Assembly: GCA_043818215.1 (NCBI GenBank)
Contig: JBDRGC010000127.1
Span: 12,832-76,831, forward strand
Direction of reading: 5' to 3'
Source of the DNA: Chloroflexota bacterium
Lineage (GTDB): Bacteria; Chloroflexota; Anaerolineae; Anaerolineales; UBA11858
DNA: 64,000 bases
Positions 27,005-33,127 of the stretch are shown here, piece by piece (the stretch's first letter is position 1; the number at the start of each line of letters is the position of its first letter). The notes beneath the pieces are model-generated. The model searched no databases and was not told where the DNA came from. It worked only from the letters and a program-made list of their open reading frames with translations. A program made the translations under genes and the position numbers.

Positions 27005-28051
27005 ATGCGCCCGATAGGAAACATGATAAACAAAATCACTAGCCGATTGAAGCTGACCGCCCGAGTGTTTCTTACCGGGCAAATTCTCTCGAATCCGAGA
27101 GGGGAAATTCCCTCCATCACCCCCGAAGAGGTTGCCGAGGCCCGCGAATTCTTCCCCCTCGACAAATTCTTCATCTTCGGCCACGCCCGCTCCGGCACCA
27201 CTCTGCTCACTCGCCTGATCCGCCTGCATCCCGACGTGCATTGCAACTACCAGGGGCATTTCTTCACCCGCCAGCCCACGCTGGAGGGGTTGGTACACAG
27301 CGCCGAGATCGAAGCCTGGCTCACCCGCCGCAGCAATCGCTGGAACCGCGGGCGTGATCTGTCACCCGTGGTGCTGCGTGCCGCGGTGGACTTCATCATG
27401 GAGCGCGAAGCCCGTCCGCTGGGGGCGCGAGTGGTGGGCGATAAAAGCCCCAACAGCCTGCTGAACGGCGAGGCCGTGCGGCTGATGCACAAAGTCTACC
27501 CCGATGGTAAGCTCATCTTTATCGTGCGCGACGGGCGTGACGCAGCCGTTTCGCATCGTTTCCAGACATTTATCGACGCCACCCAACACCTGACAAAAGA
27601 AGACTGGACTATCCGGGAGGCCTTCGAGCGTGACCCGGAGCCGTTCCTGCGTGGCGAACGCTCGATTTTCACCGGGTCGGGCATTCGCACAGCCGCCGAG
27701 GGCTGGGTGCGCAACGTCACCGAGACCGACGAACTTGGCAGGCAGATTTTCGGCCAGCAATACATCTCCCTGCGCTACGAAGACCTGCTCTCCCAACCCT
27801 GGGAGCAGATGGCGCGCTTGTGGCATTTCCTCGACGTGGATACCGAGTTACCCGATTTGCCCGAAACCCTGCGATCCGAACTCACCAGCAACCCCGATAG
27901 GGACTGGCAGCGGCAGAAAGCCGGCGAGTTGGTCGAACCGCTGCAAAAGGGCAAATCCGGCTCCTGGCGGAATTTGTTTGCCAGACGGGATAAGGCGGTG
28001 TTCAATGAGATTGCGGGAGATGTGCTCACTCATTGGGGTTATGGTGACTAG
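27005..28051 (+). CDS. sulfotransferase-family protein
   Basis: 5'-PSB loop GHARSGTTLL and 3'-PB motif IVRDGRDAAVS, characteristic of PAPS-dependent sulfotransferases. Confidence 0.8.
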   Translation: MRPIGNMINKITSRLKLTARVFLTGQILSNPRGEIPSITPEEVAEAREFFPLDKFFIFGHARSGTTLLTRLIRLHPDVHCNYQGHFFTRQPTLEGLVHSAEIEAWLTRRSNRWNRGRDLSPVVLRAAVDFIMEREARPLGARVVGDKSPNSLLNGEAVRLMHKVYPDGKLIFIVRDGRDAAVSHRFQTFIDATQHLTKEDWTIREAFERDPEPFLRGERSIFTGSGIRTAAEGWVRNVTETDELGRQIFGQQYISLRYEDLLSQPWEQMARLWHFLDVDTELPDLPETLRSELTSNPDRDWQRQKAGELVEPLQKGKSGSWRNLFARRDKAVFNEIAGDVLTHWGYGD

Positions 28052-28172
28052 GGATTAGGAACCAGGAAACCAGGAAACCAGGAAATCAGGAAACCAGGAA
28101 ACCAGGAAATACCGCCCCCTGGTCTACTGATTCCTGATTTACTGATCTACTGATCTACTGTTCTACTGATAC
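28049..28172. repeat. octamer arrays with inverted arms (CAGGAAAC then CTACTGAT)
   Basis: Read directly, between the sulfotransferase and oxidoreductase genes. Confidence 0.9.
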
Positions 28173-28179
28173 CTATACT

Positions 28180-29391: not shown

Positions 29392-30981
29392 TCAAGGCTG
29401 AATTTGGACACGATCCCATAAAATGTTTGCAGAATCGCTGAGAATTGAGAAAAGCATTCCATCAACTTCAACAACTGTATAATACTGTTCGATGTATTTC
29501 TCGGCGGGTTGGCTGTCACCCCAAAGCTGAACGATTATATCGGGTTTTAGTTGACCGATAGAGTAATCGTAATCCCATTTCATGTGGCCGGGGCGGATAT
29601 CAGCTAAAGCGGGCGGAATGTGGCTGGGGCGGTGGGCAATGATGGGATCGTTTTTCCCGAGCAGATCAATTGCCGGCCGGGTACTAAAGTAAGGAATAAC
29701 GCCCGCAGTGACCACGGCAAGATGGGCCTCGGGAGTGGTGATCTGTTTTAGGGCTAAGGCAATGCGCAGGTCCTCTTTGTTGCCTTCTACAAAAATGGGT
29801 TGGCGCTTCAATATCCAGGTTTCGATAGTGCGGCGAGCAGTTCTGAGCGTGAAATTGAAATTATACATGCTGGCAAGTACGAAAAGAGCAATACCCAAAT
29901 TTATGAGTATTTGCTTCGAGGGGGCCAATGCGTTTGTGTGGGATGCTATTGCTCGGAATATTTGTTCTGTGCTGTGAGTGAAGAGAATAAAAAATATGGG
30001 AATGCCGATGGAAATGTAACGGTTGCTGCCTCCCTGGTGCTCCCATGCGTCTCCCCCGACGTATATGCTATAGGCGATTTGCCCTAAAATGATCAGCGCC
30101 AAAAGCAGGGTGACTCGATTGCGCCGGAAAGCGAGCAGCGAGAAGGGCAGCAGGAATAGTACCCAATTCATTTGGACGGCAAATTCAGAAAAGACATACA
30201 GTCCTCGTTTGATCCGCAAAAGCAGCGGGAAACCCTCCATTTTTAGATAGTAGGTATTGGGTAGCACATCGCCGTAATACCAGAAACGGAATAGTGTTTG
30301 GCTAAGAATGAAAGCTGCTAAAAGCCCCAGCCCCCAGACGAAATTATTTTTACGGTTCTTTGAATCTGCGATGAACAGGTAGCCGAATATGACCAGGTAA
30401 GGGACAGCCATATCAATTCGCACTAATGTGCCCACACCGAGCAAAACGTAGATCCAGGGGGAGAAACGGTTATTGCGTAAGCATTGTATGGTCATCCATA
30501 GCGCCACACTTGTGATCAACGTGAGGATACTGACCTCCATGCCTTGCAAGCCCCAATTGTTCAACGGCATATAGAAAGCGGTCAATATCATAGCGAGCAC
30601 AGGAACTATGATGTTGGTGGAGAGAGACGCCGCGATTTTCTTGACATAAACCAGGTTAGCGGTGAGGAATATCGCCCCACTGATTTGGATCGGAAGGCTC
30701 ATCTTCGCTATTGGGATGGGCAATAAATGGAAGATCGCCATGAAAACCACCCATAATGGGTTTGTGTAACCTTCGACGGGAAGTTCACCCGGATTCCAAA
30801 CCAAACCGTACCCCTCAGCCAGGTTTTTGGCGTAGCGCATGGAGATCATAGCGTCATCGAAGAGAACGAAATAGCGTTCGCCGTCTGCTACAAAACTGGT
30901 TTTATAGATATATATCCCTGCATAGAGTACATAAACGAGAATGATGAGAACAAAAGGCCAGTTTTTTTTGATAGTATTCAT
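29392..30981 (-). CDS. polytopic membrane protein, GT-C-like (ArnT/PMT-type) glycosyltransferase candidate
   Basis: 529 aa with more than 10 predicted TM segments. The first-loop acidic motif (FDDAMISMRYAKN) is as in GT-C enzymes. It is visibly more AT-rich than its neighbours. Confidence 0.5.
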   Translation of the reverse strand: MNTIKKNWPFVLIILVYVLYAGIYIYKTSFVADGERYFVLFDDAMISMRYAKNLAEGYGLVWNPGELPVEGYTNPLWVVFMAIFHLLPIPIAKMSLPIQISGAIFLTANLVYVKKIAASLSTNIIVPVLAMILTAFYMPLNNWGLQGMEVSILTLITSVALWMTIQCLRNNRFSPWIYVLLGVGTLVRIDMAVPYLVIFGYLFIADSKNRKNNFVWGLGLLAAFILSQTLFRFWYYGDVLPNTYYLKMEGFPLLLRIKRGLYVFSEFAVQMNWVLFLLPFSLLAFRRNRVTLLLALIILGQIAYSIYVGGDAWEHQGGSNRYISIGIPIFFILFTHSTEQIFRAIASHTNALAPSKQILINLGIALFVLASMYNFNFTLRTARRTIETWILKRQPIFVEGNKEDLRIALALKQITTPEAHLAVVTAGVIPYFSTRPAIDLLGKNDPIIAHRPSHIPPALADIRPGHMKWDYDYSIGQLKPDIIVQLWGDSQPAEKYIEQYYTVVEVDGMLFSILSDSANILWDRVQIQP

Positions 30982-31402
30982 GGTATCCTTTTCCGGTGAG
31001 ATTTTGAGTAGAATGTCTCACATTATATAGCATTGAAGGATACCTGTCATCTGGTATTGCGTTGGCTATACGGGAAAGATTTGTAGCGCGATTTTGGAAA
31101 ATCGCTCAGGCAGCGAAAACTGCTATAATTGCACCTTCGTCGGCAGCTTTTACACCACTGTCATAACCGCATCTAGCGCCTCATCGCTATTTGTAAACCA
31201 ACAAGAAAACTACTCAGCCTGCTCAGGTTCGGCAGTTGGAAACTGCACCAACGAAGATCACAAAGCTGACCGGAGCCTGCACAGAGCTTGTCGAAGTGTC
31301 GGCTAGGAGTCCACGAAGGTGGACTTCGTGCATTTCGTTGCTGCGACTTAAGTCGCCCCGACATGGGCCAAGTAGTTACCAAACAAGGAGAATTGTTTCG
31401 AA

Positions 31403-33127
31403 ATGATTAAAACCAATAATGTCCTTATCCCTCCTTACGGTGGGAAACTTATCAACCTGGTTGAAACCAGCGCAGACCGCGAAGAATTGATCCAACAGGC
31501 CAATCATTACCCCTCCATCCAGATTTCCAGCCGTGCCCTGCATGACCTGGAATTGCTGGCCGTGGGCGGCTATTCCCCGTTGGATCGCTTCATGGGCAAG
31601 GCCGATTACCAACGCGTGCTCACCGAGATGCGCCTCGCCGATGGGACTCTCTTTCCCATGCCCATCACCCTCACCATCGACAAAGCTGACCTGCCCACCC
31701 GCGAAGAATGGATTGCCCTGCGGGATTCGCGCAACTATCCCATCGCCGTCATGCGCATCGAGGAAGTCTTCACCTGGGACCCGGCCCGGGAGGCGCGTCT
31801 CGTCCTCGGCTCCACCGACCACCGCCACCCCCTGGTCTCCGAGATGGAACGCTGGGGTGAGCTGTGCATCTCTGGGGAACTGAAAGTCCTCAACTTGCCG
31901 GTTTATTACGATTTTGTGGACATCCGCCGCACCCCCGATCAAGTCCGCGCTTTGCTGGAAGGGAAGGGGCACAAGAATGTGGTCGCTTTCCAAACCCGCA
32001 ACCCCATGCACCGCATCCACGAAGAACTCACCAAGCGCGCCGCTGCGGAAATCGGCGGTAGTTTGCTGATCCACCCCGTAGTCGGCCTGACCAAGCCCGG
32101 CGATGTCGATCACTACACCCGCGTGCGCGTTTACAAAGCACTGGTCGAAAATTATTACAACGAAAACACCGTACTCAGTTTGCTGCCCCTGGCCATGCGC
32201 ATGGCCGGGCCGCGCGAGGCCGTCTGGCACGCCATCATCCGCCGCAACTACGGCGCCAACCACTTCATTGTGGGGCGTGACCATGCCGGCCCCGGCAACG
32301 ATAGCACCGGTCAGCCTTTCTACGGTCCCTACGAGGCACAGGAAATGATGAAGCAGTACCAGGATGAAATCGGCGTCAAAATGGTGCCTTTCCAGTTGCT
32401 GGTATACCTGCCCGATGAAGAACGCTACGTGGAAGCCGACAATATTCCCGAGGGTGCCAAAGTCGCCACCATCTCGGGCACGCAAGTGCGCGAAGATTAC
32501 CTGGCAACCGGCAAACTGCTACCAGAGTGGTTCACCCGCAAAGAAACCGCTGAAATCCTGGCCGAAGTTCATCCCCCGAAAAATAAACAGGGCATTTGCC
32601 TGTGGTTCACCGGCTTCAGCGGCTGCGGCAAGTCCACCATCGCCGAAGCGCTCATGCCCATGCTGATGGAGCACGGACGTCAGGCCACCGTCCTCGATGG
32701 CGATGTCGTCCGCACGCATCTTTCCAAGGGGCTGGGCTTCAGTAAAGAAGACCGCGACACCAACATCCTGCGCATTGGCTTTGTGGCTGGTGAAATCGTC
32801 CGTCACAACGGTACTGCGGTTTGCGCGGCCATCAGCCCCTACCGCTACACCCGCAACGAGGCCCGCAAGATGGTCGGCGCAGAGAACTTTATCGAGATTT
32901 GGGTCAACACACCCCTCGAAGTCTGCGAAGCCCGCGATATCAAAGGTCTGTACGCCAAAGCCCGCCGCGGCGAACTCAAGGGCTTCACCGGCATCGACGA
33001 CCCCTACGAAGAACCTGTCGATCCCGAAATCGCGGTCAACACCGTCGATACCACCCCCGAAGAACTCGCCCGCGAAATTATCGCATACCTTCAGGAGCGC
33101 GGCTTCATCCAGGTGCAACGCACTTAG
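31403..33127 (+). CDS. sat-cysC: bifunctional sulfate adenylyltransferase / adenylylsulfate kinase (PAPS synthase)
   Basis: Sat motifs [11 protein letters not shown] and GRDHAGPG, plus a C-terminal APS kinase P-loop [11 protein letters not shown]. Confidence 0.9.

Follow-up and report, generated by a model that had tools for sequence, protein, structure and literature searches.

A sulfotransferase and a PAPS synthase in one locus

We analyzed a 64,000-nucleotide stretch of DNA from a Chloroflexota bacterium of the order Anaerolineales (assembly GCA_043818215.1, contig JBDRGC010000127.1, positions 12,832 to 76,831), hereafter the window, in which the genes for a sulfotransferase (ST) and for a fused sulfate adenylyltransferase/adenosine 5'-phosphosulfate (APS) kinase (Sat/CysC) lie in the middle of a glycan locus at positions 5495-37931. 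The open reading frames (ORFs) of the window were listed and then scanned against Pfam and NCBIfam.

The ST gene (27005..28051, + strand) encodes a protein of 348 amino acids (aa; 342 aa in the NCBI gene call, which starts at M7), predicted to be a cytoplasmic enzyme dependent on 3'-phosphoadenosine 5'-phosphosulfate (PAPS). It matches PF13469 (Sulfotransfer_3) with 91.4 bits (cutoff 27) and PF00685 (Sulfotransfer_1) with 53.9 bits (cutoff 22). In an alignment with homologues, both the 5'-phosphosulfate-binding (5'-PSB) loop GHARSGTTLL (aa 59-68) and the 3'-phosphate-binding (3'-PB) motif RDGRDAAVS (aa 175-183) are invariant across 30 sequences. The AF2 model (pLDDT 84.8) has the sulfotransferase alpha/beta fold; a fold search with this model gave 120 matches with E <= 1e-3, and all 50 matches listed are sulfotransferase-fold proteins that bind PAP or PAPS, including retinol dehydratase. 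A hydrophobicity check of the 348-aa sequence found no transmembrane-like or hydrophobic segment, which fits the use of PAPS in the cytoplasm. The search for homologues returned more than 3,700 proteins, of which the best 120 are 65-100% identical to the query. One protein, annotated as a sulfotransferase from a Chloroflexota metagenome-assembled genome (MAG), is 100% identical, and more than 100 relatives fall at 65-89% identity; those with a named source are labelled Chloroflexota or Anaerolineales, and some members of the family carry the JGI label "LPS sulfotransferase NodH".

The Sat/CysC gene (31403..33127, + strand; 574 aa) begins 3.35 kb beyond the ST stop codon. Its product has the Pfam domain order PUA_2, ATP-sulfurylase, APS_kinase and scores 858.4 bits (cutoff 669) against NF004040, the NCBIfam equivalog. 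The sulfurylase part carries a motif of the QxRNPxHR type at aa 197-204 and GRDHAG at aa 291-296, and the kinase part carries the P-loop GFSGCGKST at aa 404-412 and LDGD at aa 431-434. The SAT/APS kinase of Aquifex aeolicus (2GKS), which is a bifunctional enzyme, has the same three-domain architecture and aligns over aa 33-570 with E = 4e-234; judging from an identity of about 65% to this enzyme, the Sat/CysC of the window would make PAPS. We know of no link between the Aquifex enzyme and sulfotransferases or glycan genes, whereas the window gene is embedded in a glycan locus. Homologues of Sat/CysC that are 79-96% identical occur across the same Chloroflexota/Anaerolineales group as the relatives of the ST. 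A 420-bp gap precedes the gene; with the Rfam gathering thresholds, a scan of all 64,000 nucleotides gave no matches at all, and in particular no riboswitch in this gap.

A preliminary description of this DNA, made from its letters alone, had placed, within 27005-33127, a sulfotransferase with the two motifs and a fused Sat/CysC 3.3 kb downstream of it; the Pfam matches, motifs and fold bear out the former, and the domains, motifs and intact ORF the latter.

Conservation of the pairing in related loci

We scanned species-representative genomes for Sat/CysC, which yielded 47 loci, and metagenome contigs for the ST, which yielded 63 loci; a panel of window proteins was mapped onto all of these loci (numbered with the prefix L) by tblastn. 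The pairing was counted wherever the DNA downstream of the ST was 7.5 kb or longer, and near-identical copies were merged, which reduced the sample from 23 to 19 loci. Sat/CysC was found downstream of the ST and on the same strand in every case (23/23 loci; 19/19 after merging), at a distance of 1.06-9.4 kb (median 3.6 kb). The ST of the paired loci is 51-75% identical to that of the window, the identities of ST and Sat/CysC to their window counterparts co-vary (r = 0.85), and on long contigs the gene order around the two homologues is that of the window. The linkage of ST and Sat/CysC is conserved and vertically co-inherited, and it is beyond chance because it recurs in all 19 non-redundant related loci.

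Where Sat/CysC is at least 77% identical to that of the window, glycan genes stand alongside it in 10 of 11 genome loci. In these relatives, Sat/CysC opens a run of genes that continues with a short-chain dehydrogenase/reductase (SDR), a CMP-sugar synthetase-like gene (CTP2) and NeuB::AP_endonuc_2, mostly followed by a KpsC/KpsS-like transferase gene (Capsule_synth family) and often, after the latter, by a second sulfotransferase (ST2, PF00685). The compact loci L087, L089 and L105 illustrate the complete order: their first half consists of a KpsC/S-like gene, PseB, an RmlD-like reductase, a NeuB-family synthase, a GT4 glycosyltransferase, a first CMP-sugar synthetase-like gene (CTP1), a conserved gene designated unk319 and a GT2 glycosyltransferase, and their second half of a GT-B-fold protein, ST, a GFO/IDH/MocA-type oxidoreductase (GFO), Sat/CysC, SDR, CTP2, NeuB::AP_endonuc_2 and a second Capsule_synth gene. 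In L001, Sat/CysC is separated from SDR by 9 bp, and the ST stands 5-7 bp from its neighbours; this tight spacing suggests that Sat/CysC and ST are co-transcribed with the glycan genes. The statement in the preliminary description that both genes belong to one glycan locus thus holds, on the strength of the linkage in 19/19 loci and of the tight spacing in relatives.

NeuB::AP_endonuc_2 is a NeuB-family synthase fused to a xylose-isomerase-like TIM barrel (about 628 aa; L005:14599-16482). Its orthologues were found in L001, L011, L013, L015-L018, L020, L021, L023, L028 and L042, placed after Sat/CysC, SDR and CTP2 and before the KpsC/S-like gene, and the window has none. It should also be noted that in L017 and L042 the window-type ST is missing between the GT-B gene and GFO and the downstream ST2 is kept; therefore, the sulfotransferase content of the locus is modular.

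A third sulfotransferase family, represented by a short protein of about 210 aa, directly follows Sat/CysC in five more distant Anaerolineae lineages (L025:11731-12363, L030:11860-12498, L041:9711-10349, L046:11737-12339 and L056:2504-3136), and GT4 or epimerase genes are located near it. Beside Sat/CysC, we also found a TauE/SafE-family permease in L003, L006, L011, L012, L014, L015, L022, L031, L055, L063, L065 and L073 (for example, L003:15062-16812, L006:12109-12858 and L012:8258-9022), often with a universal stress protein (Usp) gene alongside; this permease is a candidate sulfate importer.

Glycan genes of the locus

Between ST and Sat/CysC, the window contains two genes. The first, next to ST, encodes GFO, an NAD-dependent oxidoreductase of the GFO/IDH/MocA family by its Pfam match (28180..29385, + strand), and was found in 19/19 loci. 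The second, on the opposite strand (29392..30981, -), encodes a polytopic membrane protein of 529 aa with about nine hydrophobic segments. The preliminary description had named an oxidoreductase and a GT-C-like membrane protein at this place; the oxidoreductase is clear, and the membrane protein is there, with GT-C matches that are weak. It resembles PMT_2 with E = 2.4e-4 and 21.8 bits, under the Pfam cutoff of 26.1, and a profile of its orthologues gives a weak match to mycobacterial AftB (E = 3.3e-4); the residues D42-D43 (DD) are invariant. This GT-C-like gene behaves as an accessory gene, being present in 8/19 loci and absent from the compact versions of the locus.

Immediately upstream of ST lies a gene for a 518-aa GT-B-fold protein of a TagB/SpsB-like family (25381..26937, + strand). 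It has a weak NCBIfam match to the BFO_1060 glycosyltransferase, and members of its family are named via PF04464 and the JGI label TagB/SpsB. Its AF2 model has a pLDDT of 83.5, and the top fold matches are MshA and UDP-GlcNAc 2-epimerases. We attempted to assign its role by this fold search; the matches are generic for GT-B and do not separate a transferase from a hydrolase or epimerase. The protein could be a transferase, or a nucleotide-sugar hydrolase or 2-epimerase, including the missing hydrolase of the sugar pathway.

The remaining genes of the conserved locus are all on the + strand. The first of them encodes a KpsC/KpsS-like protein (Capsule_synth; 5495..7132; PF05159, 23.7 bits, cutoff 20), a putative ulosonic-acid transferase whose orthologues head L087, L105 and L107 at 46-58% identity. 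It is followed by a PseB-type inverting UDP-GlcNAc 4,6-dehydratase (8584-9591), an RmlD-like 4-reductase (9598-10575; RmlD_sub_bind, 195 bits), a NeuB-family ulosonic-acid synthase (11896..12981; PF03102, 216 bits) and the GT4 glycosyltransferase (12985..14193; PF00534), which is syntenic in relatives; PseB and the RmlD-like reductase are syntenic in L087, L089, L105 and L107. Next come CTP1, which is KdsB/PseF-like (20476..21405; PF02348, 122 bits), unk319 (21592..22551), which is also syntenic in relatives and has no Pfam or NCBIfam match, and the GT2 glycosyltransferase (24371..25384; PF00535), syntenic in related loci. Directly downstream of Sat/CysC lies the SDR, of the classical type (33199..34251; adh_short_C2), and the last conserved gene kept in the window is CTP2 (37119..37931; PF02348), which is 83-85% identical to its L001 and L005 orthologues and was found in 18/19 loci. 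In addition to the conserved locus, positions 5495-37931 contain extra methyltransferases, a pair of Antibiotic_NAT and DUF4910 genes, and the GT-C-like gene.

Upstream of the first locus gene, Wzm (1664-2551, + strand; PF01061) and a Wzt with a C-terminal Wzt_C domain (3142-4422, + strand; PF00005, and PF14524 at 36 bits with a cutoff of 30.4) are predicted to form an ABC glycan exporter. The PseB, NeuB-family, CMP-transferase and Wzm/Wzt genes, from which the preliminary description, together with the sulfation genes, predicted a sulfated surface polymer with nonulosonate, are present in the window; the linkage of Wzm/Wzt to the locus was seen in the window only, and the 10-kb flanks of relatives end at the first locus gene.

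The acidic sugar

The genes for the sugar precursor point to a ulosonic acid in different degrees. PseB scores above the equivalog cutoff of TIGR03589 (488 bits versus 408). The NeuB-family synthase is under both equivalog cutoffs (NeuB, 242 versus 400 bits; PseI, 232 versus 340), and CTP1 and CTP2 are below all NCBIfam equivalog cutoffs (PseF, 27 bits versus 206). No domains of PseC, PseH or PseG turned up in the window by a scan that took in its main ORFs but not four small ones (2419-2952, 4500-5066, 50213-51269 and 62021-62503), and the gene-panel comparison found none of the three in the compact related loci. Thus, of the nonulosonate pathway proposed in the preliminary description, PseB stands at the level of a specific family, and the NeuB and both CMP-transferase assignments do not reach that level. 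We considered pseudaminic acid as the product; it is not supported, given the absence of PseC, PseH and PseG and the PseI and PseF scores below cutoff.

Compared with the pseudaminic acid pathway (PseB, C, H, G, I, F), the window shares PseB, a synthase of the NeuB/PseI family and a CMP-transferase; however, where that pathway has PseC, PseH and PseG, the window has an RmlD-like reductase after PseB instead. The conserved nonulosonate branch (window 8584-12981; L087, L089 and L105) consists of PseB, the RmlD-like 4-reductase and the NeuB-family synthase, and has no aminotransferase. This composition, lacking PseH and PseG as well, would fit a 7-hydroxy-9-deoxy nonulosonic acid better than pseudaminic or legionaminic acid. 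As far as the gene content goes, the product is probably a ulosonic acid other than pseudaminic acid, for which "nonulosonate-type" seems a fair label.

Comparison with known systems

The capsule clusters of Vibrio sp. KMM 8419 and Cobetia marina KMM 1449 specify sulfated polysaccharides whose structures were solved by NMR, and the authors see the joint presence of PAPS genes and an ST in such a cluster as a hallmark of the synthesis of sulfated polysaccharides (PMC11641403, PMC11766843). Like these clusters, the window has an ST and PAPS genes inside a glycan cluster, together with genes for ABC export (Wzm, Wzt) and KpsC/KpsS-type genes. The preliminary description knew of no characterised example of its combination; in fact, published glycan clusters already unite PAPS genes and an ST with ABC export (PMC11641403, PMC11766843). 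The differences are as follows. The PAPS genes are cysNC/cysD in Vibrio and Cobetia, with cysQ and a sulfate permease in addition in Cobetia, whereas the window has a Sat-type fused Sat/CysC. The Vibrio PAPS genes are stated to be second copies (PMC11641403, PMC11766843), whereas the Sat/CysC of the window is probably single-copy. Finally, the two capsule producers are Gram-negative Gammaproteobacteria with KpsMTED export and rhamnose, glucose or mannose as sugars, whereas the window comes from Chloroflexota and has NeuB-family and CMP-sugar pathways. The principle of PAPS genes and an ST in a glycan cluster is therefore already known, and the novelty here lies in the phylum, in a fused enzyme of the Sat type, in the conserved association with two ulosonic-acid branches, and in the breadth of the locus across an uncultured order.

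Locus-specific PAPS supply paired with a carbohydrate ST is also familiar from rhizobia, in which NodPQ/NodH and NoeE/LpsS serve the sulfation of Nod factors and lipopolysaccharide (LPS). Rhizobial NodPQ is of the CysDN type and the acceptors are lipo-chitooligosaccharides or LPS. The ST of the window is not a NoeE orthologue. A sulfated O-polysaccharide of Poseidonocella, published in 2018, is reportedly a sulfated Kdo polymer.

The extracellular polymeric substances (EPS) of granular sludge are both sialylated and sulfated, and the responsible STs and pathways are stated to be unknown (PMC10483923). That study offers chemistry without genes, and the window offers genes without chemistry, with nonulosonic acids and sulfate as the subject of both. 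Our literature search found nothing relevant linking Anaerolineae with nonulosonic acid, and it turned up no pseudaminic, legionaminic or other nonulosonic acid described as sulfated in bacteria.

Proposed function and alternative explanations

We propose that the window holds most of an Anaerolineales-conserved glycan locus with a built-in sulfation pair, that the locus works as outlined below, and that PAPS goes mainly to sulfation; we give this reading a probability of roughly two in three (0.68). The best reading of the product, so far as genes can predict it, is a sulfated glycan containing a ulosonic acid, because Sat/CysC is packed tightly against glycan genes in relatives within one conserved locus. 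In the proposed mechanism, Sat/CysC would convert sulfate and two ATP to PAPS in the cytoplasm, and the soluble ST would use this PAPS to sulfate a hydroxyl on a lipid-linked glycan, or on a precursor of that glycan. Ulosonic acids would be supplied by a branch of PseB, the RmlD-like reductase, the NeuB-family synthase and a CTP_transf_3 enzyme, and the glycan would be built from the CMP-activated acids by the GT2, GT4, GT-B and KpsC/S-like enzymes. The finished polymer would be exported by Wzm/Wzt, and the GT-C-like protein, where present, may modify or transfer it on the outer face.

Several observations weigh against this reading. Three genes of the conserved locus, NeuB::AP_endonuc_2, the second Capsule_synth and ST2, are missing from the window. 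The insertions in GFO and SDR and the toxin-antitoxin cassettes may mean that in this genome the pathway has undergone partial decay. Neither CysQ nor a sulfate permease was found in the window by the Pfam and NCBIfam scans and a relaxed tblastn for TauE. Outside glycan loci, between aconitase and TauE, L006 and L012 have Sat/CysC orthologues that are 82% identical to the window copy; with orthologues of equal identity elsewhere, position alone does not prove exclusive use in sulfation. CysH and Sir are present in a cultured Chloroflexota strain (bioRxiv 10.1101/2021.01.05.425403), which makes assimilation a further possible use of PAPS. The closest solved relatives of the ST, by sequence and by fold, are tyrosylprotein sulfotransferases (TPSTs) and an uncharacterised Alicyclobacillus ST, with no carbohydrate ST among them, and its sole NCBIfam match is a distant resemblance to NoeE (20.5 bits, cutoff 500), so that a NodH/NoeE-type equivalog match is not reached. 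Lastly, the glycan of the window is a prediction from genes, whereas the Vibrio and Cobetia glycans are known chemically.

One alternative is that Sat/CysC serves housekeeping sulfate assimilation through CysH and sulfite reductase, that its glycan neighbours are there by chance, and that the ST draws on a general PAPS pool. The orthologues in L006 and L012 speak for it, as does the presence of CysH and Sir in some Chloroflexota. In-locus Sat/CysC orthologues are no more similar to the window copy than out-of-locus ones, and since the latter are equally similar (82%), the enzyme appears to be the single Sat/CysC of the lineage in a variable position. No genome returned two Sat/CysC loci, in a scan that detects close relatives only. 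Therefore, the in-locus gene is probably the only copy in its genome and not a specialised extra paralogue, and the word "dedicated" in the preliminary description, as far as it means a second copy, is not supported. On the other side, Sat/CysC has glycan genes around it in 10 of the 11 loci with close orthologues and, in most of these, stands first in the run Sat/CysC-SDR-CTP2-NeuB::AP_endonuc_2, and three different ST families neighbour Sat/CysC in different lineages. Neither cysH nor a sulfite reductase gene (sir) was seen beside Sat/CysC in the approximately 25 neighbourhoods inspected. In salt marsh, sat is near-universal among Anaerolineae MAGs (53/55), and complete reduction of sulfate to sulfide was found in only one of the 55 (PMC11748557). 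From this survey, the short STs after Sat/CysC, the TauE neighbours and the lack of cysH or sir alongside, we judge sulfation to be the main, perhaps the only, sink of the PAPS made by Sat/CysC, rather than cysteine synthesis; PAPS could have a dual role in sulfation and assimilation. A purely housekeeping enzyme among chance neighbours we regard as unlikely.

Equally unlikely, in our estimate, is that the locus in this genome is a decaying remnant without a complete product. The absence of the terminal NeuB::AP_endonuc_2, Capsule_synth and ST2 genes would fit such decay, and a relaxed tblastn found no remnants of these three genes, of TauE or of Usp in the window. Further signs are the toxin-antitoxin cassettes at 10.6-11.9, 17.4-19.3 and 34.5-36.7 kb, a duplicated DUF4910 fragment at 19322-19699, and in-frame repeats in two genes. 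Compared to the L001 orthologues, GFO has an insertion of a 7-nt repeat (28581-28790) that adds about 68 aa of low complexity (PRSTPHAP...), and SDR has an insertion of a 15-nt repeat (33506-33760) that adds about 68 aa of low complexity (GSGNQ x8). However, none of the 16 core ORFs that the window retains is shortened, frameshifted or broken by a stop codon, and the insertions are in frame; identity to the L001 orthologues is 73% for the ST and 81% for Sat/CysC, and every invariant residue is kept.

It is also conceivable, although quite improbable, that sulfate is not a decoration of the repeat unit but a cap at the non-reducing end, which terminates chain growth and is read by the C-terminal domain of Wzt. 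In ABC-dependent O-antigen systems, methyl, phosphate or Kdo caps end the chains. The Wzt of the window carries a Wzt_C domain above the Pfam cutoff, the locus encodes methyltransferases typical of capping systems, and assembly would be wholly cytoplasmic, where PAPS is at hand. Nevertheless, a sulfate cap is a purely inferential idea, the Wzm/Wzt linkage is known from the window alone, and the two STs of many relatives suggest more than one site of sulfation.

The acceptor of the ST remains to be considered. TPST1/2 are its top PDB matches (E = 5e-6 by sequence; 1e-9 to 1e-7 by Foldseek), followed by 3rnl, mycobacterial Stf9, CurM-ST and cytosolic SULTs, with heparan-sulfate 3-OST lower; TM-scores to the top fold matches are about 0.5. 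No bacterial polysaccharide ST is among the PDB sequence or fold matches listed, and the fold ranking is biased for that reason; with the TPST top hits at low TM-score, we dropped these matches as a basis for calling the enzyme a protein ST. In the HMMER alignment, the C-G-E-E of TPST2 aligns to C80-N81-Y82-Q83 of the ST, and Q83 is invariant in 30 homologues. Thus, the residue at the position of Glu99, which we take to be the catalytic glutamate of TPST2, is Gln83, and the catalytic glutamate of tyrosylprotein sulfotransferases is lacking. The gene context, with the ST between the GT-B protein and GFO in 19/19 loci, favours a glycan acceptor. That the ST is instead a protein-tyrosine (RaxST/TPST-like) or small-molecule sulfotransferase, which does not act on a glycan and is encoded in the locus by happenstance, is very improbable: the lead of TPST1/2 in both PDB rankings speaks for it, but the low TM-scores, the replaced glutamate, the close packing (5-7 bp gaps in L001), the bias of the ranking and the lack of any conserved candidate peptide-substrate gene near ST in the related loci all speak against it.

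Implications

Under the sulfation reading, the locus gives this abundant uncultured lineage a gene set, both conserved and widespread, for sulfated glycoconjugates of the ulosonic-acid type. Its main import lies in how the "sat" genes of Anaerolineae are read, and in a testable gene set for sulfated acidic glycans. The puzzle of the salt-marsh survey, with sat in 53 of 55 MAGs and one full pathway (PMC11748557), would find a possible explanation, and such surveys may mis-score a PAPS synthase as sulfur-cycling capacity. The three ST families are new candidate polysaccharide sulfotransferases, of which few bacterial examples have been characterised.

A bolder extension, which we put forward tentatively and with a small chance of being right as a whole, is that Anaerolineales make a surface polymer with an O-sulfated ulosonic acid, that their "sat" is a PAPS synthase for glycan sulfation, and that this polymer is a source of EPS signals in sludge and sediment. 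Candidates for the sulfated acid are a 7-hydroxy-9-deoxy nonulosonate that has no earlier record and the product of NeuB::AP_endonuc_2. If true, such an acid would be the first sulfated nonulosonate from a prokaryote; the "sat" that nearly all Anaerolineae MAGs carry, routinely counted as potential for sulfate reduction, would feed glycan sulfation; and the locus would be one genetic origin of the sialic-acid-like and sulfate signals that occur together in the EPS of sludge and sediment.

Repeats, insertions and neighbouring genes

Tandem arrays of 7- or 8-nt units occur in nearly every intergenic gap of the locus; examples are GAGTCGGC x16, ACTGATCT x16, TCCAATC x18 and GGTTTCCT x33. Tandem Repeats Finder (TRF) reported 74 rows for the window, and the arrays, which resemble the cyanobacterial STRR type, include those at 15034-15163, 21455-21585, 28060-28170, 37066-37190, 37934-38321, 39083-39247 and 40685-40787, among many others. 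Toxin-antitoxin-like cassettes break up the glycan locus at 1100-1621, 10686-11829 (- strand), 17448-18201 and 34530-36690; they comprise a PemK/MazF toxin, two tandem BrnT/BrnA-like pairs, small ORFs including DUF6883, and an NTase-type (Polbeta/NTP_transf_2) gene with an overlapping small ORF. The duplicated fragment at 19322-19699 corresponds to aa 310-435 of the DUF4910/M28 gene, at its 3' end, lies downstream of the insert at 17.4-19.3 kb, is 69% identical to the L001 orthologue, and looks like the footprint of an insertion.

Beyond the locus, a second set of glycan genes is located at 39268-48195 and includes a histidine kinase, a GT2, a Bac_transf initiating transferase, a PglF-like 4,6-dehydratase, a FemAB-family protein and a GHL15 protein. 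Further downstream, a DDE transposase (51341-52282) lies beside a Type ISP restriction-modification enzyme of 1073 aa (52642-55863, - strand) with N6_Mtase and Type_ISP_C domains.

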